64,000 bases of DNA from Bacteroidales bacterium (GCA_016937255.1 JAFGWG010000124.1:1706-65705), one strand, 5' to 3'. Counted from the first letter of the stretch, positions 20,159 through 57,308 are shown. The notes: generated from the sequence alone by a model not told the origin. Made by a program: numbers and translations.

Positions 20159-20172
20159 TTAGAAAAATGTGT

Positions 20173-20907
20173 ATGAAAAAATTAATAATTATAGCAGCTT
20201 TTATCAGCATTTTTGTGTCATGTGGCTCAAAACCCAATAATGACGCTTCTTCTGAACAAGAAGTAATGAAATATACCCTGAAAATTGATAATATCAAAGG
20301 CCAGGTAAAAAGCTATGAAGAATCTTTTCAAAATGTAAGTTTTGATGATGAATTCAATATTACAGAAGACAGCAGCGTGGAACAGAGCCAATCATACTCC
20401 ATTCGTTATTTTGATGAAAAAGGAGTGTGGGTTGAAAGTAAAATTTTCATGCAAGGAGAACTATTTTCAAATGCAATAGCTCAACTTTCTGAAGAAGGCG
20501 CATATATTGGAACCATTAATTTGAATGAAGCTGGTGATACTGTTTCAAAAACAAAGGTTGTTGAGTTTACAAGCAAAAAACTCATTGAAGAAAACATATT
20601 GGATGGTGAAGTTGTTTATCGTCGCACGAAGGTTTTTGATAATCTAAAAACCATAAGCATGGTGGTTGACAATATGTTTAATGGCAATACTTTGCATTCT
20701 GAATTTAGCTATTCTTATAATGAAGATGGCTTCATTAGTAGTTATAGCACAAAAACCACACAAAACGGCGAAGAAATATCAGCCTCTAAGCAAAATATTA
20801 AGTATCTTGAGTTTGATAATGAAGGAAACTGGACAAAGCGTCTTTCCTATAGTGAAGGTGTTTTTGAAGGTCAACTTACAGTTAGATCTTTTGAATATTA
20901 TAAATAA
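20173..20907 (+). CDS. Hypothetical lipoprotein
   Basis: Signal plus lipobox (FVSCGS). I recognise no other motif. Confidence 0.5.
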   Translation: MKKLIIIAAFISIFVSCGSKPNNDASSEQEVMKYTLKIDNIKGQVKSYEESFQNVSFDDEFNITEDSSVEQSQSYSIRYFDEKGVWVESKIFMQGELFSNAIAQLSEEGAYIGTINLNEAGDTVSKTKVVEFTSKKLIEENILDGEVVYRRTKVFDNLKTISMVVDNMFNGNTLHSEFSYSYNEDGFISSYSTKTTQNGEEISASKQNIKYLEFDNEGNWTKRLSYSEGVFEGQLTVRSFEYYK

Positions 20908-21646: not shown

Positions 21647-22243
21647 CTATTTTGCTGTAAAAGTCATTGTGCCGGTAGTGGTTTCTACATCGCCATCATA
21701 GTTGGCAGAATAATCATGTACAATCACCAACTCACTACTGCTCAGCTTCTCGAAAGCATAAATTACATCTGGATCAAGAGATATACCTGACAATGTATAA
21801 CCGTCTCCACTCGTATAAGTCAAAACAATAGCTTCTTTATTTTTAAGATCAATATCCTCGTTGCCATATACCCAGCTCCAGATGCCACTATTGGTCTCTG
21901 AATCACCATCGTCAATAATGGTTTCAGTAAAAGTTCCATCTTTTGCAAACTCAACTTCACTAGAGAATGTGTAAGTAGTGGTATTGCTCGAACTGCTTCC
22001 TCCTACTGTATAAACGGAAGTTTGTGTGATAGTCGTTCCATCAAAACTGGTAGTAGTAGTAGATGTATAAGATGATGTAGTATACGTTGTTGTCATATCA
22101 GCACTTGACATCTTCCACTCGCGGGAAAGGCGACTGGTTCTTGACTTCAAAGATAAGAAAGGATCGTTTTCTCCTTTTTTGCAGGAAGAAAATAACACAG
22201 CAATTAAAACAATTGCCATAGAAAGGCTTAATACTTTTTTCAT
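21647..22243 (-). CDS. Lipocalin-like lipoprotein with Ser/Thr-rich stretches
   Basis: Lipobox FSSCKK. Has a W-K motif after the signal (SREWKMSS) and S/T tracts (TTYTTSSYTSTTTTS, GGSSSSNTTTY). It is a paralog of the next gene. Confidence 0.5.
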   Translation of the reverse strand: MKKVLSLSMAIVLIAVLFSSCKKGENDPFLSLKSRTSRLSREWKMSSADMTTTYTTSSYTSTTTTSFDGTTITQTSVYTVGGSSSSNTTTYTFSSEVEFAKDGTFTETIIDDGDSETNSGIWSWVYGNEDIDLKNKEAIVLTYTSGDGYTLSGISLDPDVIYAFEKLSSSELVIVHDYSANYDGDVETTTGTMTFTAK

Positions 22244-22327: not shown

Positions 22328-22354
22328 AAAAAAAAGGCCCCTAAAAGAGCCTTT
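22328..22354 (-). terminator. Rho-independent terminator (minus strand) after the 22372-22809 gene
   Basis: Minus-strand sequence AAAGGCTCttttaGGGGCCTTTTTTTT: a 6-bp stem including one G-U pair, then a T8 run. Confidence 0.6.
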
Positions 22355-22371
22355 GATAAATATACAATATT

Positions 22372-22809
22372 CTATCTAACGACTAAATGATCTTCTTCAT
22401 TTTGTCCAAGAGTGTTTTCAAATTCAACCCATAACTCTTTTGAGGTAAGTCTTAAAATAGTGTATTCTGTGTTGTAACTGATTGTGCCAATCAGGGCAGA
22501 AACCTCAATTGTTTCTTTAGAATTAATGAGAGCCCATGTTCCTGTTTGAGTTACAACTGAAGCACTACCAATAACAGTAGTATAATCATATACACCGTCT
22601 TTTTTGAATTCAAAATAGTCATCTTTATCGTCTGTTGTTAATGTTTGTGCAACACCATCAACATATCTTTCATCAAGTTTCCATTGCTTTTGTAAACGCA
22701 TTGTTTTTGGAAGAAGACTTATAGCTGGGCCATCTTCATATTTGCCACAAGAACTCATTATAAAAACACTAATGAGAGCAAAGGCCATAAATTTTGTAAA
22801 CACTTTCAT
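22372..22809 (-). CDS. Lipocalin-like lipoprotein
   Basis: Lipobox MSSCGK and a QKQWKLDE motif. Beta-rich, 145 aa. Confidence 0.5.
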   Translation of the reverse strand: MKVFTKFMAFALISVFIMSSCGKYEDGPAISLLPKTMRLQKQWKLDERYVDGVAQTLTTDDKDDYFEFKKDGVYDYTTVIGSASVVTQTGTWALINSKETIEVSALIGTISYNTEYTILRLTSKELWVEFENTLGQNEEDHLVVR

Positions 22810-22872
22810 AGTAAGAGATTTTTAGTTTGAACAAATATAAAAAAATAATTAACCCAAAATACAATGGCTTAA

Positions 22873-24258
22873 TTATTTATGCACCTTCCTAACAAATTCA
22901 TCTACCTCTTTTACACCGCCTTGGTAAATCAGATATCCGTTATATGGCTCACGTTCGGTAATTTCATCGTTTATTGGAGTGAGCATAATTCTCTTGACTT
23001 CTTCAGGGTCATTGGTTTGACCTAGTGTCCAGCCCAGTTTAATATAGGCTGTTTCGGGCAACATATTGGCAGCAGGAATAATTCCTTTAGCCATTAAATC
23101 GCGGCCTGTATCATATACAAACATATGAGTGTATCCCCAAAGAGTTTGTACGGTCATAAACATGTGAACCCCTTTTGCATGTGCTCTTTCAATGGCTGGA
23201 TATAGCGGTTTATTAATATGCCCCAAACCTGTTCCTGCAATAATAATTCCTTTATAACCAGCATCTACCAATGCATCAATTACATCGGGTTGCATATTTG
23301 GATAATAATAAACAATAGTAACTTTTTCCTCAAAATAAGGCATGATTTTTACCTGTTTATCTTTACGACGAGGCTTATAATCTTGTTTAATAGGCACTAC
23401 GCCCTTACGGGTTACTGTTGCTAGTGGAATATCTCCAATCGTTCTGAAAGTAGATCGATATGAAGAGTGCATTTTTCTTACCCTGGTTCCACGATGCAAA
23501 AAGCCATATTCATCAGATGTAGGGCCAAACATACAAACCATTACTTCTGCGATATCTCCATGTCCGGCAGCCGTCATGGCATGCATTAAGTTAAGTGCAG
23601 CATCTGAGCTTGGACGATCAGAAGAGCGCTGAGAACCCACTAAAACGATTGGGATAGGGGAGTTCTGAATCATAAAGGTTAATGCAGCGGCGGTGTGAGA
23701 TAAAGTATCAGTTCCGTGCCCAATTACAATACCATCGATGCCTTTTTCAATTTCTTCTCCAATAGAGATTGCCAGTTTTTTATACTGTTCGGGGCCCATG
23801 TTTTCGCTAAAAACAGCAAATAGCTTATCAGTTGTAAGGTTGCAAATATCGGCCAACTCAGGAACAGCTCCGTATAGTTCTCCCGGAGTAAATGCAGGAA
23901 TTACCGCCCCTGTACGATAATCGAGACGCGAAGCAATGGTTCCACCAGTTCCAAGTAGCTTTATTTTTGGTAACCCCTCTGTTATAGGAAATTCTTTTTC
24001 CGGAATCTGGTAATTGGCCTTTTTATAGCCTGTTTCCTTCATCCCTGTTACAGTGCCAGTGTCGATACCAATATTATAACCAGTGATAATTTTTAAAACG
24101 ATATGTTTATCATCGTCATTTTCAGACCTGGGAAGCACTGTCCCCTTAAAATCACCACGCGTAGTTTGAATTTCCGCCTGACCCCATACTCGTACCTGAT
24201 ATTTCTTAAGTAAGTCTAATGCCTCACCTTTATATCCCTGAAAAAAATCTTCACTCAT
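22873..24258 (-). CDS. gatD: Archaeal-type Glu-tRNA(Gln) amidotransferase subunit D (GatD)
   Basis: 461 aa. Has a GatD-specific N-terminal domain (DDKHIVLKIITGYNIGI) followed by an asparaginase-type core: GTGGTIASRLDYRTGAV, GHGTDTL, GSQRSSDRPSSDAALN, VRKMHSS, GTGLGH. Its start overlaps the gatE stop (TAATG). Confidence 0.85.
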   Translation of the reverse strand: MSEDFFQGYKGEALDLLKKYQVRVWGQAEIQTTRGDFKGTVLPRSENDDDKHIVLKIITGYNIGIDTGTVTGMKETGYKKANYQIPEKEFPITEGLPKIKLLGTGGTIASRLDYRTGAVIPAFTPGELYGAVPELADICNLTTDKLFAVFSENMGPEQYKKLAISIGEEIEKGIDGIVIGHGTDTLSHTAAALTFMIQNSPIPIVLVGSQRSSDRPSSDAALNLMHAMTAAGHGDIAEVMVCMFGPTSDEYGFLHRGTRVRKMHSSYRSTFRTIGDIPLATVTRKGVVPIKQDYKPRRKDKQVKIMPYFEEKVTIVYYYPNMQPDVIDALVDAGYKGIIIAGTGLGHINKPLYPAIERAHAKGVHMFMTVQTLWGYTHMFVYDTGRDLMAKGIIPAANMLPETAYIKLGWTLGQTNDPEEVKRIMLTPINDEITEREPYNGYLIYQGGVKEVDEFVRKVHK

Positions 24259-26255
24259 TATTCTGAAATTTTCTGTTTAACAACTTGATACAAGTTCTCA
24301 AGTCCCATGTTTCCATAGGCCATTCTCGACAATTGACCCATTATCCAATCGATTCGATTTTCTGTTGAATCACTATAGCAAATAGAGCTAAATTTTTCGC
24401 TAAGGAAATCGATCTTCTCCGTAATTTCGTCTTGCTGACGTTCTTTAAATTTAATACTGGTAAGAACAGATTCAAGCTCCATTTTTGGATAATGATACAG
24501 GACAGGAAGCATTTTGTATGCTAGTTTTAAGTTGTAATTTTTCTTTTTTAGAAATACCAGCAGATCTTCAATAATTTCATAATTGAAACCTTCTCCTTTT
24601 TCAAAATGACCTTCTACCCATTTCATACGATGGCCAATAAAATTACCCAGCCATTTGGGAGAGATTTTATGCTTTTTTGAAATAGTATCAATAATTGGGA
24701 AAAGATTGCGCTTAAAAATATAATTATAAGTGCTTTCTGCAACACCCCATTCTTTTAGTTGGTTATAACGGGCAACCACATCTGTGGGCAAGCCTTTGCT
24801 TAATTCATCAATAACTTCATTGGTTAATGGAATTGGTGCTGAATCGGTATCAGGATACATACGGTCGGCTCCAGGCAATACCCTTTCAAAAATAGTTGTG
24901 CCGTTTTCAAAACTTTTTCTGGTTTCTTCCGGAACACCTTCAAAGGCCATTTTACAACGCTCTTCAATGGTTTCCAAAGCGGTTTTCATATCCTCTTCCG
25001 GACCCCAAACTATAAGTTGAGCATCATCTGGCCCGGCATTGAGCATAGGAGCAATAATGTCAAGATCAAGATCGGTAATAATCGGCTCAAACTGCTCGGT
25101 ATGTAGCAGATTTGGCTTTTCGAGACATGCCACAACTTTTAATCGATCACTGATTTCATCAGCAAACATTTTCCCGGGTTGAGTAAAATGACTCATAATG
25201 CCTTTGAATCCGGGAAGATTTACTGCCACTAGTTTTTCACCACTATCTTTTGCAACTTTTAAAGGCTCATAAGTGATTTCAAACATGTCAAAATCAAGGA
25301 AGCCATGGCTCATTTCCCAAGCTTTATAATCAGCAAATTTCGATTGAAGCTTTTCTCTAATTTTCAACAATGCCCACTGGCGAAAACACTCATTATGAGT
25401 AAGTTCTGGAATCCATTTCGTATGTGCAACACCCTTAATTTCTACACGAGTACCGCCTTTACAACTCACATTCACATCCTCACGACCTGCACCCATCCCA
25501 ACGCGAACTTTTCCGGTACTACGATTTAGAAAGCGAATATAATTACAAGCTTCCATCACCTCATCGGGATTTACCATATCGGGATAAGTTACCGTTTCAA
25601 TCAAAGGCATACCCAAACGATCGGTTTTGTAAACACGAGTATGACCGATATCGCTGATTTCACGACAACTATCTTCTTCAATACTCAATTGAATCAGGCG
25701 AACATTTTTATTTTTCAATGGAATTTCACCTTCAACCCCAATAATGGCTGTACGCTGAAATCCTGTTGGAATACTTCCATCTAAATACTGTTTACGGGTT
25801 ATGTGAACTTCACCAACAATATTCAATTTCGAAAGCAGACTTATTTCAATAGCGATATCGAGTGCCTGTCTGTTTATGGGAAATGGTGGAGTATCATCCA
25901 CTTCGTATGTACATGTAGTTTGATGCTTCAAACGATATACAATTTCCTTACGGGTTTTAAATTCCATTAAAGCGGTACCATCATACTCTCCCAGCTCGCT
26001 TAGCGTTGGGCGCATATGACGAATTACTTCTGCATCGTAATCATCACTATCGTGAAAACGACCTGCAGGGCAATTGCAAAAAAGTTTTTTATCCGTTAGT
26101 AATTGCTGATGAACCTCTAGCCCCGACATAAAGCCTATATCATCATAGGTTTTTTGCGTAGCTTCCTTTCTTGGCACATAAGAAACCTCTTTCTTAGTCT
26201 TTTCGTAATTCGCTCTCGGATCAAAGTGGTTTTCCATTTTCTGATAATTATACAT
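24258..26255 (-). CDS. gatE: Archaeal-type Glu-tRNA(Gln) amidotransferase subunit E (GatE)
   Basis: 665 aa. Motifs GLEVHQQLLTDKKLFCNCP, EVDDTPPFP, GFQRTAIIG, DRLGMPLIETVT, VEIKGV, and a PEETRK...MYPDTD region, collinear with archaeal GatE as I remember it. Confidence 0.85.
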   Translation of the reverse strand: MYNYQKMENHFDPRANYEKTKKEVSYVPRKEATQKTYDDIGFMSGLEVHQQLLTDKKLFCNCPAGRFHDSDDYDAEVIRHMRPTLSELGEYDGTALMEFKTRKEIVYRLKHQTTCTYEVDDTPPFPINRQALDIAIEISLLSKLNIVGEVHITRKQYLDGSIPTGFQRTAIIGVEGEIPLKNKNVRLIQLSIEEDSCREISDIGHTRVYKTDRLGMPLIETVTYPDMVNPDEVMEACNYIRFLNRSTGKVRVGMGAGREDVNVSCKGGTRVEIKGVAHTKWIPELTHNECFRQWALLKIREKLQSKFADYKAWEMSHGFLDFDMFEITYEPLKVAKDSGEKLVAVNLPGFKGIMSHFTQPGKMFADEISDRLKVVACLEKPNLLHTEQFEPIITDLDLDIIAPMLNAGPDDAQLIVWGPEEDMKTALETIEERCKMAFEGVPEETRKSFENGTTIFERVLPGADRMYPDTDSAPIPLTNEVIDELSKGLPTDVVARYNQLKEWGVAESTYNYIFKRNLFPIIDTISKKHKISPKWLGNFIGHRMKWVEGHFEKGEGFNYEIIEDLLVFLKKKNYNLKLAYKMLPVLYHYPKMELESVLTSIKFKERQQDEITEKIDFLSEKFSSICYSDSTENRIDWIMGQLSRMAYGNMGLENLYQVVKQKISE

Positions 26256-26383
26256 TGTGACCTGTACCTTACAAGTGATTTATTCCCCAAAAGTATAATA
26301 AATCGTCAAATAATAATAATCTTGGTGTAAAAATTGTTTCATTCTAAAGAATTCCTAATTTTACACTATAGAAATAAAAAAAC

Positions 26384-43070: not shown

Positions 43071-43218
43071 AATTCATTACATTTATTTGGGCCTACTCTT
43101 ATTCGCTTTTCGGCATCCGCGATAGACTTCAAATATACAAAAATATTTCCAACACCCTTTGTTTGTTTCAGAAAAAATCAGTTTTCCGGAAATTCCTACA
43201 TTTGTAAAGGGATAAATA

Positions 43219-44179: not shown

Positions 44180-46504
44180 ATGATGCAAAGAGTTTTTATT
44201 CCCTTCATGTTTTTCATTCTGTTTTTTGCTTTTTGCAATGCACAGGGTGTCGCCGTGGGCGAGTGGCGCGATCACTTGCCTTATTCTAGTGTAATTGATG
44301 TGGCAACCGCACCCGACCGGGTGTATGCTGCAACAGAATATGGGCTGTTTTATTACGACACATATGAGGGAACCATAACCCGAATGAGTAAAGTGGAAGG
44401 ATTAAGCGATATTGGAATAAGTGCAATTGAATATTCCGACAAGTACGACATGCTCATTGTAAGCTATTCCAATGCAAATATTGATTTGATTCCGTACGAA
44501 GGTGATTTGTATAATTTGGCCGATATTAAGCGCAAGAATATTATTGGAAATAAAAGTATAAACAATATTTATTTGCAAGACGACTACGCTTATCTCTCCT
44601 GCGGCTTTGGAATAGTGGTTTTAAACCTGAATAAAAAAGAAATAAAAGACACTTATTATATTGGCGATAACGGATCACAAGTTAATGTTCTTGATATTAC
44701 ATTTAACGATAGTCTTATTTTTGCTGCCACCGACGAAGGGATATATACCGCAGATATCAACAGCCCTAATCTTGCTTATTTTGGTAATTGGAACAAAGAC
44801 ATTTCAATTGCTAATCCCAACGGGATGTATTCCGAGATAGAGTTTTTTGAAAATAGCGTTTATACTCTTCATAAGAACCCTGTTTTTGGCGATGACACCA
44901 TTTATTATTATCAGAACAATATTTGGCAAACCTTTTCATACTTTTCTGCTGAAGAATTTACTTCTTTGAAAAGCTCGAATAATCAATTAATTGTTTGCGG
45001 ATATTCGTGGGTGGAATTCTTTGACCAAGGATTATCCAGTTTGGGTAAAACGTTTACTTATTCTGGTTTATCTCCTCAACCCAATGCTGCCGAATATTCA
45101 ACAGATGGTGTTTATGTGTTTATTGGTGATCAAAATTATGGATTACTTAAAACCTGGAATATTTGGAATAATGAAATTATTATGCCTGAAGGACCTTATA
45201 CTTCTAATACTTTTTCATTGGATCTTACCGGGAATGTGATTTCTGGAGTAAATGGAGGGTATAATAGTTCTTATGGGAATTCTTATAGGGGTGCTGGCTT
45301 TTTTATTTTTAATGAGGAGGACTGGACGTCCTATTATCGTTTTGTTAATCCTGAACTGGACACATTGTTTGACTTCATTTGTATTGAAACGGCAAATAAT
45401 GATCCAGATCATATTTATCTTGGATCATATGGGCAAGGGTTGATAGAATATAATGATGGTTCATTAGTGCAAATTTATAATTCGGAAAACAGCAATCTGC
45501 AGCCTGTGCAATCTTCATCTAATGTTAATGTTGGAGGCCTAAGTTTTGATGATGATGGTAATTTGTGGATTACTACAATGGGGAATACAGGGTTACTTAG
45601 TGTTTTAAAACCAGATGGGAGTATCCGAACATTTAACTTTCCCTCATCCTATTCTGCAAGTGTTTCTGGAGATATCGAAATCGACCAAAGTGGCTATAAA
45701 TGGATAAATTTGCCTCGTGGAGAGGGAATTGTGGTTTTTAACGATAATGGCACTATTGACAATACTTCAGATGATGAATACAAAAAACTGACTAGCTCTG
45801 AATCATTAGGGAATTTGCCCAATCTTTATGTCAATGCTATTGCGGTTGACCGTGATAACGAAATTTGGATAGGTACGAATGAAGGAATTGCTGTGATTTA
45901 TAATCCGGAAAATGTATTTGATGGTGGAGATTACGATGCTCAACAAATTCTTGTTGAAGTTGGTGGTTATGTGCAGCCTCTGCTAGAATCTGAGATAGTA
46001 ACTTGTATTGCAATAGATGGCGGTAATAGAAAATGGATAGGAACAAATAGTGCAGGTGTGTTTTTAATCAGCGAAGATGGACAGACAGAAATTCACCATT
46101 TTTCAACCGATAATTCGCCATTGCTTTCCGACGAAATTAATGACTTGAAAATTCACCCGGAAACTGGAGAAGTTTTTATTGCAACCAGTGAGGGAATTAT
46201 TTCCTATCGCGGTACTGCAACAGAACCAGAGGAAAATCTTGATTCTATTTTGATTTTCCCAAATCCTGTTAAAAGCGATTTTAATGGCTATGTTTCTATT
46301 AATAATTTGGTTGAAAATGCTTGGGTGCATATAACAGATATGTATGGCAATCTGATTTATAAAACACAGGCCTATGGCGGCCAGGCAGTATGGAACTGTA
46401 TTGATATTGATGGAACCCGACCAGCAACTGGAATTTATTTGGTTTTTGTTAGCAGCAAAGATGGCTCCTTTAAAAATGTTGGTAAATTTATGTTCTTCAA
46501 CTAA
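44180..46504 (+). CDS. PorZ-like double beta-propeller protein with a T9SS C-terminal domain
   Basis: 774 aa. Signal peptide, then a GEWRDHLPYSSVIDVA...VYAAT start and repeated propeller-type segments of the two-component-regulator propeller type. The C-terminal sorting domain is IFPNPVKSDF...GIYLVFVSS...KFMFFN. The PorZ assignment rests on architecture only. Confidence 0.5.
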   Translation: MMQRVFIPFMFFILFFAFCNAQGVAVGEWRDHLPYSSVIDVATAPDRVYAATEYGLFYYDTYEGTITRMSKVEGLSDIGISAIEYSDKYDMLIVSYSNANIDLIPYEGDLYNLADIKRKNIIGNKSINNIYLQDDYAYLSCGFGIVVLNLNKKEIKDTYYIGDNGSQVNVLDITFNDSLIFAATDEGIYTADINSPNLAYFGNWNKDISIANPNGMYSEIEFFENSVYTLHKNPVFGDDTIYYYQNNIWQTFSYFSAEEFTSLKSSNNQLIVCGYSWVEFFDQGLSSLGKTFTYSGLSPQPNAAEYSTDGVYVFIGDQNYGLLKTWNIWNNEIIMPEGPYTSNTFSLDLTGNVISGVNGGYNSSYGNSYRGAGFFIFNEEDWTSYYRFVNPELDTLFDFICIETANNDPDHIYLGSYGQGLIEYNDGSLVQIYNSENSNLQPVQSSSNVNVGGLSFDDDGNLWITTMGNTGLLSVLKPDGSIRTFNFPSSYSASVSGDIEIDQSGYKWINLPRGEGIVVFNDNGTIDNTSDDEYKKLTSSESLGNLPNLYVNAIAVDRDNEIWIGTNEGIAVIYNPENVFDGGDYDAQQILVEVGGYVQPLLESEIVTCIAIDGGNRKWIGTNSAGVFLISEDGQTEIHHFSTDNSPLLSDEINDLKIHPETGEVFIATSEGIISYRGTATEPEENLDSILIFPNPVKSDFNGYVSINNLVENAWVHITDMYGNLIYKTQAYGGQAVWNCIDIDGTRPATGIYLVFVSSKDGSFKNVGKFMFFN

Positions 46505-50451: not shown

Positions 50452-53400
50452 ATGAGAATCCTGACTTTTGCAATTGCTGTATTTTTGGGCGTACAGGTTT
50501 TTGCACAACAAAGCATTATTATTAATGCTGAAAATCAGAATAATCTTGAATTTGTCAGTTCAACACAACAGACACTACAGGTAAGTTTCACAATTCACGA
50601 CCTAAATATTACTTCGTTTAAAACCGAAAATGGCGAGTTTTGCCAAATACACCTATTCGACGCTGTAAATATGGGCGAAATCGGTTGTCCCGAGTTGCCA
50701 ACCATAACAAAAATGATTCGCATTCCCGAAAATGCAGAACTTAAAATCGTTGTTCAGTCTGCTCAATATACCGATATTGATTTAGCAGATTATGGAATTT
50801 ATAGCCCTCTCTTCCCGGAACAGGGACATCAAACCAAAGACAATAATGTCAAAGATTTTATTAAAAATAAATCTGCTTATTCCGAAAATGTTTTCTCAGG
50901 AAACGAAATTGTTCAGACCGAAGTTCAAGGGCATCTTCGTAATATGAGAATTGCTTTGCTCAAAATTTCTCCCGTTCAATATAATCCGGTTCAAAACACA
51001 ATACGCGTGTATCATAGTATTGATTTTGCAGTGGTATATAAAAATGCCAATTGGGCTCAAAGTGCTGAGCTGGACAAAAAGTATGGCAGTTTTCTTTTTT
51101 CATCTATAGAAAATGAGGTTTTCAATACCGATATTTTTAAAGCACAAAAAGACACCAATACGCAATATCCAGTTAAAATGATAATTGTGGCCGACACCAT
51201 GTTTCACGATGCGTTACAGCCATTCATTCAATGGAAAACCAAAAAGGGATTTATTGTAGAAGAAGCATACACAAGTAATCCCGCGGTGGGAACTACAACT
51301 ACTAGTATAAAGTCTTATTTGCAATCATCATGGGATAATGCTTCTGCGGGTGATCCGGCTCAAAGTTTTATCCTCATTGTTGGCGATGTTGCACAAATTC
51401 CGGCATTTAGTGGTACGGCTGGTTCTCATTTTACCGATATGTATTATGCAGAATATACTGGTGACGTCATTCCTGAAGTGTTTTTTGGTCGTTTTAGTGC
51501 AACATCTGTTGCTGAGCTTCAGCCTCAAATTGATAAAACGCTTGAGTATGAGCAATACCTTTTCCCCACAGAAACATGGCTTGACACGGTAGTAATGGTT
51601 GCCGGCGTCGATGGTTCTTTTGGTCCGGTTCACGGAAATGGTCAAATCAATTATGGAATTACCTATTATTTCAATGCTTCGCAAGGTCTTTATTCCTACA
51701 CACACCTTTATCCCAATTCAGGTAGTGAGGCTGCACAGATCAGAAGCGAAATAGGACAGGGTGTTTCTTTTGCCAATTACACTGCGCATGGTAGCACCAG
51801 CGGGTGGGCAGATCCTTCATTCGTTTCGACCGATGTTCCAAGTATGAATAATAACCACAAGTATCCACTTATGATAGGAAATGCTTGTTCAACAAATACA
51901 TTTAGCTCAGATTGCTTTGGCGAAACATTGCTTCGTATTCCAGAAAAAGGAGCCATTGGATATATAGGCGGTTCAAACTCTACTTATTGGGATGAAGATT
52001 TTTACTGGGCTGTTGGAGTAAGAACCACCATTGACGCAAACCCCGTTTATAGTGTAGGAAACCATGGTTCTTATGATCGATTATGGCATATCAACGGTGA
52101 ACCTTTCAGCGAATGGTTTGTTTCACAAGGCCAAATGGTAATGGCAGGAAATATGGCTGTTTTACAAAGCGGAAACACTTCATATACGTATTATTCTGAG
52201 ATTTATCATCTCATGGGCGATCCTTCATTAATGCCCTATATTGGAATCCCATCACAGCTCACGGTTAGTCATCCACCATTAGTTCCTATTGGCCAAAGTT
52301 CTATCGCGGTAACAACCGAGCCCTACGCTTATGTTGGTGTAAGTCAAAATGGTGTTTGGCATGGTGCAGGAATAGCAGATGCTACAGGAAACCTTACAAT
52401 TAATATTATTCCTTTTACCATTCCCGGGAATATAGATATTGTTGGAACAAAGCAATTTAGAAAACCATACGTATCAACATTTATTGCTCAAAATCCAACA
52501 GGTCCCTATGTTTTGTATGATGCAAATGCTGTTATTGATGTTGCTGGTAACAATAATCAGATGGCCGATTTTAAAGAAACTGTTGATCTGAACGTAAGGC
52601 TTAAAAATTACGGTTTGCAAAACGACACAACGGTATATGCCATTTTAAGCACTACAGATCCTTATGTTGAGATTATCGACAGCGTTGGTATCTGGGGGCT
52701 AATGTATGCCAACGATACTCTTACTCTTTCTCAGGCATTCACAATTAAAATTGATACTTTGATTCCAGATCAGCATATTGCTGGCTTCAATCTTAGTATA
52801 CGAGATTCTTCATCCAATGTCTGGCCTTCAAATTTCAATATTTTACTCAACGCTCCTGTATTGAAGATCATGGATTTGACAATTGATGATAGTGGTTCAG
52901 GAAATGGTAATAATAAACTTGACGCCGGTGAAACGGTTGATATTAGTATTTCTGCAATTAATAATGGTCATGCAGATATTGATCAGGCAATGGCTTCCCT
53001 AAGTACAATAAGCCCTTATATAACCATTAATTCCTCTCAGCATTTCCACGATACTCTAAATCAAGCTTTAATGGAAATCGGCTTATACAATATCTCTGTA
53101 AATGCAGGTACACCATTAGGGCAAACTATTGACCTCACCCTCGATCTTGTAGCTGGTCTTTATTCAGATTCAAAAACATTTGTAAAGTCTGTTGGACAGG
53201 TTGATGAGGATTGGGAAACCGGAGACATGAGCCAATTTGCATGGATTATTGGAGGCGATGTTCCTTGGACTATTACCAGTGGAAACCCCTATGAAGGATC
53301 CTTTGCAGCAATGTCGGGCGATATTGGAGACGATCAAACCTCAACACTTTCTATTGACATTAACGTGCTTAGTGCCGACACCCTGTCTTTCTATAAAAAA

Positions 53401-53907
53401 GTCTCTTGCGAAGAAGGTTGGTCTGGAACGCTATGGGATTATCTCGATTTTCAGGTTGATGGCACAAGCAAAGGTAAATGGGGTGGAGAAATTGCCTGGT
53501 CAGAAGAAAAATATGCGCTTACTATGGGTTATCACGAACTGACTTGGTTATATTTTAAAGATGGTTCTATTTCGTCGGGCTCAGATGCAGCATGGGTCGA
53601 TTATATTATTTTCCCGCCAATGATTGTTGTAACGGGTCTTGAAGAAGATATTATTCAGAATAATGTGAGGGTGTCCCCAAATCCTGCAGTTGATCATACT
53701 ACTGTTCAATTTATGCATGAAGGGGGTGCGTTTAGTATTCAAATCTACGATGTCCAAGGTAAATTGCTTCGTGAAATAAACGCAGAAGCTCCAGCTGGAC
53801 AACTCTATTATCCAATTGATGTTGAAACCCTAGAACAAGGTATTTATACTCTTTTGGTTACAACTGATAAACAGTATTTTAGCAGCCAATTCGTAAAAAC
53901 CAACTAA
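50452..53907 (+). CDS. Gingipain-like C25 cysteine peptidase, T9SS cargo (paralog 1)
   Basis: 1151 aa. Signal peptide; propeptide-like N-terminus (GCPELPTITKMIRIP); His motif YTAHGS; Cys motif IGNACS. A shared C-terminal module is VDEDWETGDM...AAWVDYIIFPP. T9SS CTD: VSPNPAVDHTTV...GIYTLLV. Confidence 0.8.
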   Translation: MRILTFAIAVFLGVQVFAQQSIIINAENQNNLEFVSSTQQTLQVSFTIHDLNITSFKTENGEFCQIHLFDAVNMGEIGCPELPTITKMIRIPENAELKIVVQSAQYTDIDLADYGIYSPLFPEQGHQTKDNNVKDFIKNKSAYSENVFSGNEIVQTEVQGHLRNMRIALLKISPVQYNPVQNTIRVYHSIDFAVVYKNANWAQSAELDKKYGSFLFSSIENEVFNTDIFKAQKDTNTQYPVKMIIVADTMFHDALQPFIQWKTKKGFIVEEAYTSNPAVGTTTTSIKSYLQSSWDNASAGDPAQSFILIVGDVAQIPAFSGTAGSHFTDMYYAEYTGDVIPEVFFGRFSATSVAELQPQIDKTLEYEQYLFPTETWLDTVVMVAGVDGSFGPVHGNGQINYGITYYFNASQGLYSYTHLYPNSGSEAAQIRSEIGQGVSFANYTAHGSTSGWADPSFVSTDVPSMNNNHKYPLMIGNACSTNTFSSDCFGETLLRIPEKGAIGYIGGSNSTYWDEDFYWAVGVRTTIDANPVYSVGNHGSYDRLWHINGEPFSEWFVSQGQMVMAGNMAVLQSGNTSYTYYSEIYHLMGDPSLMPYIGIPSQLTVSHPPLVPIGQSSIAVTTEPYAYVGVSQNGVWHGAGIADATGNLTINIIPFTIPGNIDIVGTKQFRKPYVSTFIAQNPTGPYVLYDANAVIDVAGNNNQMADFKETVDLNVRLKNYGLQNDTTVYAILSTTDPYVEIIDSVGIWGLMYANDTLTLSQAFTIKIDTLIPDQHIAGFNLSIRDSSSNVWPSNFNILLNAPVLKIMDLTIDDSGSGNGNNKLDAGETVDISISAINNGHADIDQAMASLSTISPYITINSSQHFHDTLNQALMEIGLYNISVNAGTPLGQTIDLTLDLVAGLYSDSKTFVKSVGQVDEDWETGDMSQFAWIIGGDVPWTITSGNPYEGSFAAMSGDIGDDQTSTLSIDINVLSADTLSFYKKVSCEEGWSGTLWDYLDFQVDGTSKGKWGGEIAWSEEKYALTMGYHELTWLYFKDGSISSGSDAAWVDYIIFPPMIVVTGLEEDIIQNNVRVSPNPAVDHTTVQFMHEGGAFSIQIYDVQGKLLREINAEAPAGQLYYPIDVETLEQGIYTLLVTTDKQYFSSQFVKTN

Positions 53908-53909
53908 TT

Positions 53910-56900
53910 ATGATGAAATTTTTTCTGACAATTTTTCTAGCCACAATTACTGTATGTGCTTTTTCTCAGCAGTATTATTCCTTAAATAATGCTGATGGCA
54001 ACAGTATAAATGTTTTGTCTTCTAATGCAGAAGAAAGCATAATTGAATTCAATTTTAGCGGTTTTTACATTGAAGATGTAAATACTCCTCAGGGTGTTAA
54101 AAAAGCCATTTCTATGCCTGGTACTTCTCATACACTGGTAAAAGGCGAACCTCAGGTCATACAGTTGGCTCGATCCATTATAATTCCAGATTTGGGTGGA
54201 ATGGAATATAAAATTCTACAAAGCTCTTTTGAAGAATTTAATAATATTGAGTTGGTGCCATCAAAAGGGAATATTTATAGAGATGTTGATCCTTCAACTG
54301 TTTCTTACGAGTGGGGTAGAACTTATCAGGAAAATGGAGTGTTTCCCGCTTCACCCGTTTCTTTGTCAGAACCTTATATCTTGCGTGATTATAGAGGACT
54401 GGCTATTCGTGTCTTTCCCGTTCAATATAATAGCGCCAATCAAAGTATTAAGGTGTATAAAAAGATCATCGTCAAAGTTTCGCATCTTAATGCTGCAAAT
54501 GCAATTAATGAGATCAATAGAACTAAGTCTATGCAAAGCGTTGACGAGCAATTCGACGCATTGTATGCTGGCCAGTTTCTAAACTATAATCAGGCAAAAT
54601 ATACAGCCATCCCCGAGAGAGGAAACATGCTAATAATTGCTGACCCTTCTTTTGTGGCTTCCATGGCGCCATTTGTACAGTGGAAGAATAGAATTGGGTA
54701 TCCAACCGAAATTGTGAGCACAACAATAACCGGCACAACTAATACTGCAATTAAAACGTATGTAACCAATTATTACAACACCAATGGTCTTACGCATCTT
54801 CTTTTTGTTGGAGATGGATATCATATCCCGGTAATTACTTCAGGAGTTGGAGGTCCATCCGATAATGCCTATGCTTATATATCAGGAAACGATCATTATC
54901 CCGAGTTTTATGTTGGTCGTTTTTCCGTTGAAAGTACAACAGACGTGGATGTAATGGTTGAAAGAAGTATTCAGTATGAATTGAACCCTTATACCGGGTC
55001 CGATTGGTTAAATAGAAACTTAGGTATTGCCAGTGATCAGGGTCCAGGCGATGATAATGAATATGACTATGAGCATATCAGAAATATTCAGTCAGATTTG
55101 CTTGCCTATGAATATACATTATCCTTTGAACTCTTTGATGGTTCACAAGGCAGTCTCGATGCCAATGGAAATCCATCTGCTTCAAATGTTGGAACTGTTG
55201 TTAATGATGGAGTGGGCATTATAACATACTGCGGACATGGCAGCGATGTTTCTTGGGGAACCAGTGGATTTAGTAATACCAATATAAACACTTTAACCAA
55301 TACAAACGAATGGCCATTTATATTCTCTGTGGCTTGTGTTAATGGAAACTTTGTATCTCAGACCTGTTTTGCAGAAGCGTGGCTTAGAGCAAGAAGTGTT
55401 GGTGGCGATCCAACTGGTGCCGTAGCAACAATAATGAGCACCATCAATCAATCATGGGATCCACCAATGGAAGGGCAAGATGAAATGGTAGATGTGCTTT
55501 GTGAATTGAATAGTGGAAATATTAAACACTCTTTTGCCGGTATTGTGATGAGTGGCTGTATGAAAATGAACGATACTTATGGTTCTAGTGGTGATGAAAT
55601 GACAGACACTTGGACGGTGTTTGGAGATCCTTCAATTATGGTGCGTACCGACACTGCAAAAACATTGAGTGTTACACATAACCCAACCACTTTTGTTGGT
55701 GCAAGTTCTTTTACTGTAAACTGTAATGTGGAAAATGCATTTGTGTGTATTACACTTAATGATCAGATTCTTGGAACGGGTATAATTTCAGGAGGTACAA
55801 CAAATATTAGTTTCCCTGCATTGATAGGTGTTGATACTCTTGTTGTAGCAGTTACCCATTATAATTATATCCCTTATATTGGCGAAGTGCCTATTATTTC
55901 TGCTACAGGTCCCTATATTGTTTATGATAGCCATACTATAAATGATGCTTCAGCCAATAATAATGCGCACGCCGATTACCAAGAAAGCTTTTTGTTGAAT
56001 TTAACACTCAATAATGCCGGAGTGAGTGATGCCTCTTCAGTTGTAGGCAATATTTCCTCTAATGATGCCGCAATAAGTATTACCGATACTACTCAGGCTT
56101 ATGGAAGTATTTTAAGTGGAAACACTGCAACTCAAAACGACGCCTATGCTATTACTGTAGGCGATGTTGCTGATGGTCATTTGGCTACTTTCCATTTAAA
56201 TAGTACAGATGGTGTCGATTCATGGGGCTCTACTTTTCATATTAGCATCAGTGCGCCGGCTTTGGCCATTGGAAATCTTTTGGTCGACGATGCTTCTGGA
56301 AATAATGATGGAAAACTCGACCCAGGAGAAACAGCAAATATTATTATTGAATCATTTAATAATGGTCACGCCGATTATAGCTCTACTGGTGGAATACTTA
56401 GTTCTACAAGCCCATATGTGACCATTAATAATGGGTCTGCAGCTCTTGGCACATTAAGTGCTTCGGGAAATGCCAACGCAAACTTCAATATAACAATTAG
56501 TGCTGGAGCTACATTGGGGTCAAGTGTAGATCTTACTTATACCCTTGGAACAGGATTTTATGAAGTGCAGTACACATTTAATCTTAAAGTTGGTATTGTT
56601 GATGAAGACTGGGAGAGTGGAGATATGACTCAATATAATTGGACCACTTCAGGAAATCAAAACTGGTTTGTCACTACTGAAAACCCATACGAAGGAACAT
56701 ATTGCGTTAAATCTGGAACCATTACCGATAACCAAAGTTCAACCCTTAGTGTTTCTATTAACTGTGCAACCACTGATTCTATTTCATTTTATAGAAAAGT
56801 TTCGTGTGAAGACGGTTCTTCTTATGGTTCACAATGGGATTATCTTGAATTCAAAATTGATAATACTTCCAAAGATTGGTGGGATGGTGTTAAAGCTTGG

Positions 56901-57308
56901 CAACGAGTAGCTTATGCAACTACTACGGGTCAACACACTTTCTCTTGGACATATTCTAAAGATGGCTATGTGTCCGATGGCGACGATGCTGCATGGGTCG
57001 ATTATATCGTTTTCCCACCTCTTGCAGTTCCAACTGGAATTGAAGAGGCCGATTTCAGCTTTAATGTGTATCCTAATCCATCATCTGGCAATTCTTCACT
57101 GGAAATCTATGTAAATGAAAATGAATTGGTTCATATTGCAATATTGAATGAACTAGGTCAGATTAATAGCATTATTTATGAAGGTGAATTGTCTCAGGGG
57201 CAGCATCACATTTCTCTTAATTTAGAGTCTCTTTCTCAAGGTCTTTATTTTATTAGGGTTCTTGGGGAAAGTGGCACCTCGACGAGAATGCTGATGATTG
57301 GTCACTAA
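53910..57308 (+). CDS. Gingipain-like C25 cysteine peptidase, T9SS cargo (paralog 2)
   Basis: 1132 aa, starting 2 nt after paralog 1. YCGHGSDVSWGTSGF...PFIFSVACVNGNF closely follows the RgpB catalytic His/Cys pattern as I recall it. Shared module: VDEDWESGDM...AAWVDYIVFPP. CTD: VYPNPSSGNSSL...GLYFIRV. Confidence 0.85.
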   Translation: MMKFFLTIFLATITVCAFSQQYYSLNNADGNSINVLSSNAEESIIEFNFSGFYIEDVNTPQGVKKAISMPGTSHTLVKGEPQVIQLARSIIIPDLGGMEYKILQSSFEEFNNIELVPSKGNIYRDVDPSTVSYEWGRTYQENGVFPASPVSLSEPYILRDYRGLAIRVFPVQYNSANQSIKVYKKIIVKVSHLNAANAINEINRTKSMQSVDEQFDALYAGQFLNYNQAKYTAIPERGNMLIIADPSFVASMAPFVQWKNRIGYPTEIVSTTITGTTNTAIKTYVTNYYNTNGLTHLLFVGDGYHIPVITSGVGGPSDNAYAYISGNDHYPEFYVGRFSVESTTDVDVMVERSIQYELNPYTGSDWLNRNLGIASDQGPGDDNEYDYEHIRNIQSDLLAYEYTLSFELFDGSQGSLDANGNPSASNVGTVVNDGVGIITYCGHGSDVSWGTSGFSNTNINTLTNTNEWPFIFSVACVNGNFVSQTCFAEAWLRARSVGGDPTGAVATIMSTINQSWDPPMEGQDEMVDVLCELNSGNIKHSFAGIVMSGCMKMNDTYGSSGDEMTDTWTVFGDPSIMVRTDTAKTLSVTHNPTTFVGASSFTVNCNVENAFVCITLNDQILGTGIISGGTTNISFPALIGVDTLVVAVTHYNYIPYIGEVPIISATGPYIVYDSHTINDASANNNAHADYQESFLLNLTLNNAGVSDASSVVGNISSNDAAISITDTTQAYGSILSGNTATQNDAYAITVGDVADGHLATFHLNSTDGVDSWGSTFHISISAPALAIGNLLVDDASGNNDGKLDPGETANIIIESFNNGHADYSSTGGILSSTSPYVTINNGSAALGTLSASGNANANFNITISAGATLGSSVDLTYTLGTGFYEVQYTFNLKVGIVDEDWESGDMTQYNWTTSGNQNWFVTTENPYEGTYCVKSGTITDNQSSTLSVSINCATTDSISFYRKVSCEDGSSYGSQWDYLEFKIDNTSKDWWDGVKAWQRVAYATTTGQHTFSWTYSKDGYVSDGDDAAWVDYIVFPPLAVPTGIEEADFSFNVYPNPSSGNSSLEIYVNENELVHIAILNELGQINSIIYEGELSQGQHHISLNLESLSQGLYFIRVLGESGTSTRMLMIGH

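Follow-up and report, generated by a model that had tools for sequence, protein, structure and literature searches.

We analysed a 64,000-nucleotide (nt) stretch of DNA from a Bacteroidales bacterium (GCA_016937255.1 JAFGWG010000124.1:1706-65705; this whole stretch is called the window hereafter). Two adjoining genes on its minus strand encode GatE and GatD, the two subunits of GatDE, a heterodimeric amidotransferase known from archaea. The features of the pair are as follows.

24258-26255, minus strand: gatE, an open reading frame (ORF) of 665 amino acids (aa) for the tRNA-dependent kinase/amidotransferase subunit E
22873-24258, minus strand: gatD, an ORF of 461 aa for the glutaminase/asparaginase-type, ammonia-donor subunit D
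24256-24260, minus strand: TAATG stop/start overlap through which gatE and gatD are coupled, with one base, 24258, in common

On the coding strand, the gatE/gatD junction reads TCAGAATAATGAGTGAA / TCAGAATAATGAGT, the TAA stop codon of gatE and the ATG start codon of gatD overlapping at 24258. Translational coupling of the two genes had been proposed in a preliminary description of this locus, and reading of the junction sequence confirmed the TAATG overlap. The positions and lengths of the ORFs, and all the peptide motifs that had been quoted for GatD and GatE, were also found in the two translations.

The same description stated that GatDE has been treated as an archaeal signature. This is true of the retrievable literature from 2008 to 2022, where GatDE is termed an 'archaeal signature protein' (PMC2330236, 2008), is said to occur 'exclusively in archaea' (PMC2811023, 2009) or 'only in archaea' (PMC8007984, 2021), and is again treated as exclusive to archaea in PMC9499178. 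Full-text searches of the published literature found no report of a bacterial GatDE. The enzyme serves as an archaeal signature in reviews and textbooks, and its supposed restriction to archaea underlies arguments on the amidotransferases of LUCA, the last universal common ancestor, and on why glutaminyl-tRNA synthetase (GlnRS) never entered the archaea (co-evolution of GatDE with the A1-U72 tRNA(Gln)). To our knowledge, GlnRS is absent from all archaea.

GatD scored above the cut-offs of the NCBIfam archaeal equivalog model TIGR02153 (493.8 bits; cut-off, 324) and of NF003217 (492.9 bits; cut-off, 310). Its Pfam domains are GatD_N (PF18195; 40.2 bits against a cut-off of 25.7), Asparaginase (PF00710) and Asparaginase_C (PF17763). 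In phmmer searches it was collinear with 1zq1_A (5.8e-114) and also aligned to 2d6f_A. The residues T107, T183-D184 and K262 correspond to T101, T177-D178 and K254 of the Methanothermobacter thermautotrophicus enzyme and are invariant in 17/17 bacterial loci, as is the QRSSDRPSSDA loop. The asparaginase subfamily model TIGR00519 was also exceeded (373.7; cut-off, 260.5) by the core alone, and the GatD equivalogs scored higher. A stand-alone type I L-asparaginase was ruled out by these higher equivalog scores, by the GatD_N domain and by the adjoining gatE. The Gram-positive MurT/GatD peptidoglycan amidotransferase has only the gene name 'GatD' and the idea of a glutaminase-fed amidation in common with the window locus, to which it is unrelated; its GatD is a class I glutamine amidotransferase and not an asparaginase homologue, and that system has no tRNA substrate.

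GatE exceeded the cut-off of the archaeal equivalog model TIGR00134 (396.6 bits; cut-off, 319.55) and passed that of NF003107 marginally (458.5 bits; cut-off, 456). GatB models, on the other hand, gave only 52-121 bits on this protein against cut-offs of 315-680; the best of them, NF004012, reached 121.2 bits (cut-off, 338), and TIGR00133 reached 113 (cut-off, 314.8). Scoring with the NCBIfam/TIGRFAM archaeal models was a check named in the preliminary description, and its identification of GatD and GatE was borne out by it. In Pfam, a single GatB_N match is stretched over residues 44-482 of GatE. As this model has 277 positions, the span indicates a large insertion. The YqeY tail (PF02637) and GAD (PF02938) domains were not detected in GatE at E <= 1e-3 in Pfam. 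By phmmer, residues 37-563 were collinear with the M. thermautotrophicus GatE 2d6f_C (2.9e-87), the alignment running unbroken over residues 3-517, and the protein also aligned to Pyrococcus abyssi GatE. The window GatE consists of a cradle, an AspRS (aspartyl-tRNA synthetase)-like insertion (∼310-440) and a helical domain, followed by a predicted YqeY-like tail (∼479-664).

It has been reported that His15, Glu157 and Glu184 of M. thermautotrophicus GatE bind Mg2+ in the kinase site and that their mutation abolishes activity (PMC2330236). H49, E193 and E220 of the window GatE align to these three residues, which are kept in 20/20 Bacteroidota, in 30-31 of 32 other bacteria and in 84-85 of 85 archaea. 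Hence the catalytic residues whose absence was to weaken the earlier claim (the Thr/Thr-Asp-Lys site of GatD and the cradle His/Glu residues of GatE) are all present.

The AlphaFold2 model of GatE, built with an 80-sequence alignment, had a mean predicted local distance difference test score (pLDDT) of 94.4 and a predicted TM-score (pTM) of 0.90. It contained an alpha/beta insertion domain at ∼310-440 (pLDDT > 89) and an all-helical C-terminal region at 479-664 (pLDDT 92-97). In the tail, where the GatE-type motif is expected (GXXAXGX region), the 'MGxL' anchor of GatE aligned, and the archaeal RG(K/R)x(D/S)GK motif was absent. When the model was searched with Foldseek, P. abyssi GatE (1zq1_C) ranked first with a target-normalised TM-score (TMt) of 0.83, followed by M. 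thermautotrophicus GatE (2d6f; TMt 0.78-0.81), and all the GatB chains were lower (TMt 0.59-0.75). There were also weak AspRS matches, as expected for the GatE-specific AspRS-like insertion. The modelled fold is thus closer to the solved archaeal GatE structures than to GatB, and the insertion domain is seen in the alignment, the Pfam span, the AlphaFold2 model and the fold matches. On the strength of the profile (HMM) cut-offs, the ranking of folds and the insertion domain, we rejected a divergent GatB and likewise a plain asparaginase beside an unrelated gene.

The archaeal GatDE enzymes (M. thermautotrophicus, 2D6F; P. abyssi, 1ZQ1) are made up of two subunits like the window pair, for which an identical order of domains is predicted. 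Their GatD comprises the N-terminal domain and an asparaginase core with the Thr/Thr-Asp-Lys site, and their GatE comprises the cradle with its His/Glu/Glu Mg site, the AspRS-like insertion, the helical domain and the YqeY-like tail. However, identity to the window proteins is only 30-38 % for GatE and 43-47 % for GatD, and the window GatE has an N-terminal extension of ∼30 residues. Bacterial GatCAB shares the overall chemistry and the role in the indirect pathway, and GatB is a paralogue of GatE that has the cradle, helical and tail domains in common with it. The window GatE differs from GatB in having the insertion domain that GatB lacks, and its partner is the asparaginase-type GatD instead of the amidase-type GatA plus GatC. 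It is also devoid of GatB's 3-10 turn and Lys-rich motif (PMC2811023).

Both genes are under very strong purifying selection. In the closest locus pair, dN/dS was 0.008 for gatD and 0.016 for gatE; between the window and the Marinilabiliales locus L014, pN was 0.045 against a pS of 0.75, the latter being saturated. Judged from these sequence features, the GatDE pair is intact and looks fully functional.

We then considered how widely the pair occurs in bacteria. The best 120 database relatives of the window GatE were all 66-100 % identical to it; many among these are named 'GatE [Bacteroidales / Bacteroidia / Bacteroidota bacterium]' by NCBI, and the contigs of some measure 1.7, 3.1 and 6.4 Mb. 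Among the GTDB species representatives, 18 gatE loci were recovered, 18/18 from Bacteroidota, including the cultured Marinifilum fragile JCM 15579 (NZ_BAZX01), a closed chromosome of a metagenome-assembled genome (MAG; OY820914.1) and a Lentimicrobiaceae MAG. When 1.84 billion cluster representatives were searched exhaustively, 606 GatE representatives were obtained at E <= 1e-30, and these fall into three tiers: the Bacteroidota cluster (63 % identity), a middle tier (40-54 % identity, 380-540 bits) and the classical archaeal GatE (30-38 % identity, ∼260-345 bits). The names in the middle tier are Deltaproteobacteria, CSSED10-310, Calditrichia, KSB1, Krumholzibacteria, Aminicenantes and Ca. 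Desulfaltia (Desulfobacterota). Their gene contexts are bacterial (a sigma-54 activator with RND/OEP efflux; HisKA/response-regulator; Lnt-MurC-MurD-MraZ-RsmH), and each middle-tier contig whose context was inspected has gatE followed by gatD. Two proteins of unusual length were present in this collection, a bacterial-clade GatE homologue with ∼300 additional residues (P0163, 943 aa) and an archaeal GatE in which the match begins at residue 170 (P0190, 781 aa); either may be a fusion or have a mis-called start.

Hundreds of bacterial GatE homologues therefore lie in bacterial contexts in at least seven phylum-level groups, and GatDE is not confined to archaea. The archaea-only distribution is a claimed property of the family, not a structural requirement, and does not bar the window pair from membership. 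So the presence of GatDE in this genome is real, as had been described, but it is not peculiar to this genome or phylum, since the pair belongs to a large monophyletic bacterial clade. The preliminary description had reckoned that a place in a well-described bacterial clade would weaken its claim; the NCBI (PGAP) and IMG pipelines do already label the bacterial proteins as GatE and GatD, yet the clade, visible in the databases, is apparently undiscussed in papers.

The gene order gatE-gatD was found in 15/18 of the GTDB loci, and 2/18 are truncated too early to show a gatD. The spacing of the genes varies, from an overlap through gaps of a few to ∼200 bp to the presence of an unrelated gene between them. 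The intervening gene is of the OmdA/YdeI family (PF13376) in three loci (L006:2600-3199, L011:3922-4518 and L012:11969-12562) and encodes a type IX secretion system (T9SS) sorting-domain protein in another (L017:5271-6041); because of these insertions, the tight coupling seen in the window is not universal. A divergent LptA/OstA-like gene (510-529 aa) lies upstream of gatE in seven loci (L003, L005, L007, L011, L012, L015 and L018), and AmiA-like, MlaD-like and 962-aa genes are nearby in four of these. These LptA-like, AmiA-like and MlaD-like neighbours occur in a part of the Bacteroidota and are absent from the window; they look like residual ancestral synteny.

The host contig is unambiguously from Bacteroidota. 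The window has genes for EF-Tu, NusG, bacterial RpoB and RpoC, MutS, an RlmB-like methyltransferase and ElbB, as well as NuoE/NuoF, a SusC-like receptor, Dpp7 and the type IX secretion protein PorZ, and bacterial core genes flank gatE-gatD on either side within the 64 kb. The pair is ameliorated to its host. Its GC content (gatD, 0.405; gatE, 0.381) is near that of the window (∼0.38), and both GC at third codon positions (gatD, 0.307; gatE, 0.306) and codon-usage distance (gatD, 0.057; gatE, 0.048) fall within the ranges of the 21 other window genes (0.278-0.382 and 0.040-0.090, respectively). On an independent contig, L014, from a Marinilabiliales MAG, a gatE with 94 % identity adjoins the same TlpA-like/NuoE/NuoF genes. 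The bacterial host and the absence of a compositional break that had been noted earlier are both consistent with these data. A recent horizontal transfer or mobile element was rejected, there being no GC or codon anomaly and the pair being present in many lineages in different chromosomal contexts; no mobile genes were found among the annotated neighbours of gatE-gatD.

Next, we compared bacterial and archaeal homologues in phylogenetic trees, in which the taxon labels derive from MAGs. With 137 full-length GatE sequences, the midpoint-rooted neighbour-joining tree divided into a bacterial and an archaeal side, Asgard being basal within the latter. In a labelled GatE tree (49 taxa, 628 columns, 200 bootstraps), all bacteria grouped at 100 %, and so did Bacteroidota, on a long stem; bacteria plus Asgard were separated from all other archaea at 100 %, and bacteria plus Heimdallarchaeota grouped at 90 %. 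When the cradle-domain tree was rooted with GatB, bacteria were monophyletic in 87/100 replicates and archaea in 3/100; the sister of bacteria was Asgard-only in 61/100, and no replicate (0/100) placed bacteria as the sister of all archaea. The GatD tree was concordant with GatE, with bacteria at 100 % and with bacteria plus Heimdall and Thor separated at 100 % from Methanothermobacter, Pyrococcus and Thermoprotei.

The nearest archaeal relatives of both window subunits are therefore the GatDE proteins of Asgard MAGs (Heimdall-, Hod-, Thor- and Odinarchaeota); Heimdall GatE scored 380 bits compared to 260-345 for other archaea. Bacterial pairs always have the order gatE-gatD, an arrangement that Thorarchaeota share, whereas Thermoprotei have gatD-gatE. 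Three archaeal arrangements were seen in MAGs: divergent genes in Heimdallarchaeota (L023), gatE followed by gatD in Thorarchaeota (L024) and overlapping gatD-gatE in Thermoprotei (L025). The Asgard genes differ from the window pair in keeping the archaeal loop and tail motifs described below, in having detectable GAD/YqeY Pfam domains and in their archaeal contexts (S13-S4-S11 ribosomal proteins, a TFIIB-type zinc ribbon, PolD DP2 and NFACT). These topologies suggest that the bacterial GatDE clade most probably arose by one ancient transfer from an Asgard-like archaeon, which is our best reading of both direction and donor; the pair would then have spread among phyla and descended mostly vertically in Bacteroidia and several other phyla. 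The genes were not recently acquired by this genome. A transfer, as envisaged in the preliminary description, is supported, but an acquisition specific to this lineage is not, because the pair is a member of a large, old and monophyletic bacterial clade in at least seven phylum-level groups.

Bacterial tRNA(Gln) has a U1-A72 pair and archaeal tRNA(Gln) an A1-U72 pair. Archaeal GatDE recognises its tRNA(Gln) by the A1-U72 pair and the D-loop (PMC2330236, PMC9499178, PMC2943598). Bacterial GatB reads U1-A72 by a 3-10 turn, in place of which GatE has a short basic loop, and the tail of GatE carries a GatE-specific motif (PMC2811023). Both of these elements are rewritten in Bacteroidota, at the following positions of the window GatE.

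25476-25511, minus strand: rewritten loop, GatE residues 249-260, Bacteroidota-specific
24300-24347, minus strand: rewritten basic tail motif, GatE residues 637-652, Bacteroidota-specific

The loop beside base pair 1-72 reads K-V-K-R-G-L-G-T-I-R in archaea and K-V-R-(T/V)-G-(I/M)-G-A-G-R in Bacteroidota, the changes being R215 to T/V, T219 to A and I220 to G. Arg215 is near-universal in archaea (80/85), and Thr occupies this position in 18/20 Bacteroidota; the window GatE is without the Arg and has T252, A256 and G257 at the three changed positions. The tail motif RG(K/R)x(D/S)GK is kept in archaea and in the other bacterial lineages, whereas in Bacteroidota it is xGN(M/I)x(L/P). It is due to this replacement that PF02637 and PF02938 were not detected in the window GatE; most non-Bacteroidota bacterial GatE sequences still give a PF02637 match. 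In the GatE tree, the rewritten loop and tail motif coincide with the long Bacteroidota stem branch (0.32). We interpret the remodelling as a possible re-tuning of tRNA recognition, in adaptation to the bacterial U1-A72 tRNA(Gln).

Taken together, we consider it probable that the locus encodes a functional GatDE-type heterodimeric amidotransferase for Glu-tRNA(Gln), and that its clade stems from one ancient Asgard-like transfer. By analogy with the archaeal enzyme, the subunits would assemble as an alpha2-beta2 complex, and GatE would bind Glu-tRNA(Gln) and phosphorylate the gamma-carboxyl of the glutamate at the Mg2+ site H49/E193/E220. GatD would hydrolyse Gln or Asn via T107, T183-D184 and K262, and the ammonia would be channelled to GatE, yielding Gln-tRNA(Gln) for translation. 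The window pair thus belongs to a known enzyme family but sits in a domain of life where that family was not expected, and its mechanism is presumably conventional by homology. We infer the substrate, the translational role and the reason for the remodelled tRNA elements, as well as the direction and donor of the transfer. Constraint at the level of housekeeping genes argues for an essential role, most simply that of a route to Gln-tRNA(Gln).

Several points weigh against this proposal. The host of the window pair is bacterial, and its tRNA(Gln) is expected to have U1-A72 and its glutamyl-tRNA synthetase (GluRS) to be bacterial; M. thermautotrophicus GatDE uses bacterial Glu-tRNA(Gln) poorly (PMC2943598), and archaeal GatDE binds the archaeal non-discriminating GluRS (ND-GluRS) via the insertion domain (PMC2330236, PMC9499178, PMC2943598). 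In cultured Bacteroidales and Flavobacteriia, glnS and asnS are present and gatCAB is absent, while Cytophagia have mostly gatCAB and no glnS; no Marinilabiliales are included in this compilation (PMC4206432 Table S1). Should this genome encode GlnRS, GatDE would lack a substrate in the presence of a discriminating GluRS. We know of no bacteria with an archaeal-type ND-GluRS. No tRNA-Gln, gltX, glnS or other translation gene was found near the pair in the window or in the fetched loci. Three loci have an intact gatE (657-659 aa; L003:4461-6434, L007:3133-5112 and L018:10004-11980) with no gatD in the fetched flanks and with alpha-amylase-like or other genes after gatE; their gatD may be elsewhere in the genome or missing. 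As for the origin, all the trees are distance-based (neighbour-joining on Kimura distances, with bootstraps), the GatB outgroup consists of three 200-residue fragments that were rebuilt from PDB alignments and are short and divergent, and the position of Asgard may be affected by long branches.

Other explanations of the origin were weighed in the same manner. That the pair results from a chimeric assembly, or from archaeal DNA contaminating a bacterial bin, has a negligible probability, the archaeal affinity of the GatDE family being all that speaks for it. Opposed to it are the bacterial core genes on both sides, the host-like codon usage, and the presence of the pair in a cultured isolate, in a closed MAG chromosome and on Mb-scale contigs; and because contig L014 repeats the gene neighbourhood, with the same junction to TlpA-like/NuoE/NuoF, a chimera is excluded for practical purposes. 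The earlier suggestion of a domesticated transfer, not contamination, thus holds. Sheppard and Soll reportedly proposed that GatDE was present in LUCA, and the bacterial clade, a deep and monophyletic group that occurs in several phyla and is parted from archaea by the midpoint root, might accordingly descend vertically from such an ancestor with loss in most bacteria. We regard this as very improbable, as in the GatB-rooted tree archaeal monophyly was recovered in 3/100 and bacteria as sister to all archaea in 0/100, the bacteria plus Asgard split stands at 100 % in both subunits, and the distribution is patchy and concentrated in sediment-dwelling FCB-group and neighbouring phyla.

With regard to function, the enzyme could serve as an accessory beside GlnRS, rescuing mis-acylated Glu-tRNA(Gln), acting as a backup under certain nitrogen conditions or having a non-translational or non-tRNA substrate. 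Such a role would accord with the direct pathway (glnS+, gatCAB-) being the rule in cultured Bacteroidales and Flavobacteriia, with the lack of linkage to translation genes and with the recurrence of envelope genes (LptA-like, AmiA-like, MlaD-like) as neighbours in Bacteroidota. We find it unlikely, however, as conservation of these neighbours does not extend to the window, to Marinifilum or beyond Bacteroidota, and because the dN/dS of 0.008-0.016, the invariant tRNA-kinase and glutaminase sites and the retention in at least seven phylum-level groups make the pair look like an essential housekeeping function. A change of specificity, by which GatDE would act on Asp-tRNA(Asn) besides or instead of Glu-tRNA(Gln) and so replace a GatCAB that Bacteroidales lack, would fit the absence of GatCAB from the cultured members (PMC4206432 Table S1). 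This appears distinctly improbable given that the GatE-specific insertion domain, modelled to exclude AspRS in archaea (PMC2943598), is fully kept, that cultured Bacteroidales have AsnRS and thus no evident need for an Asp-tRNA amidotransferase, and that non-Bacteroidota bacterial GatE retain the archaeal-type tail. A stronger form of our proposal is that GatDE, captured from Asgard and with its tRNA-reading elements re-engineered, is the sole route to Gln-tRNA(Gln) in Marinilabiliales-type Bacteroidia, its partners being a non-discriminating GluRS of bacterial type and a tRNA(Gln) with U1-A72. This we hold to be conceivable but rather doubtful. If true, it would represent a return to the indirect pathway from the direct (GlnRS) one in a phylum with GlnRS-using cultured relatives, and a natural counter-example to the co-evolutionary locking of GatDE with archaeal tRNA(Gln).

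A bacterial GatDE clade under strong purifying selection suggests that the enzyme can be transplanted into the bacterial translation apparatus. It raises the questions whether the archaeal ND-GluRS:GatDE transamidosome is required for activity, and whether non-orthologous displacement of GatCAB or GlnRS is possible. The Bacteroidota branch with rewritten recognition motifs and the other bacterial branches with archaeal-type motifs provide natural variants for study, and the cultured carrier M. fragile JCM 15579 makes these questions experimentally accessible. As both subunits group with Asgard, the clade is also a rare and well-delimited candidate for an archaea-to-bacteria transfer of a core translation-related enzyme.

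The surroundings of the pair were inspected for transcription signals and for other genes. We looked for the motif TAnnTTTG, which we take to be the Bacteroidetes (Bacteroides) -7 promoter consensus. The following features were found around gatE-gatD.

26288-26295, minus strand: TACTTTTG, a TAnnTTTG match 33-40 nt upstream of the gatE start, singled out by position alone
22832-22839, minus strand: second TAnnTTTG match, which could equally serve as the lipocalin-like ORF's own promoter
22372-22809, minus strand: lipocalin-like ORF, between gatD and the terminator-like hairpin
22333-22354, minus strand: terminator-like hairpin with a 9-bp stem and a T-run, the sole such hairpin downstream of gatE-gatD

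The motif is not enriched in the whole window (71 found against 78 expected), and the match upstream of gatE is weak. A scan for sigma-70-type promoters gave no more matches than in shuffled controls, and no RNA leader or riboswitch for gatE-gatD was found. As the hairpin comes only after the lipocalin-like ORF, this ORF may be co-transcribed with gatE-gatD; neither the ORF nor the hairpin is considered a part of the enzyme system. The neighbours are as previously described, namely the lipocalin-like ORF and a thioredoxin-like protein (thioredoxin-fold, TlpA-like).

Further away in the window, two ORFs gave no NCBIfam or Pfam family match: one of 246 aa (20167-20907, plus strand) and one of 198 aa that is Thr/Ser-rich and lipoprotein-like (21647-22243, minus strand). 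Downstream of porZ (44180-46504), two adjacent ORFs of > 1100 aa each occupy 50452-57308 on the plus strand; a weak PorU-related match at the N-terminus is all that was found for the first, the second has no NCBIfam match, and both are possibly large T9SS-associated proteins. At 43090-43123 on the minus strand, there is a match to the DUF805b cis-regulatory RNA (Rfam RF02914), which at 37.2 bits barely exceeds the gathering score of 35.6.

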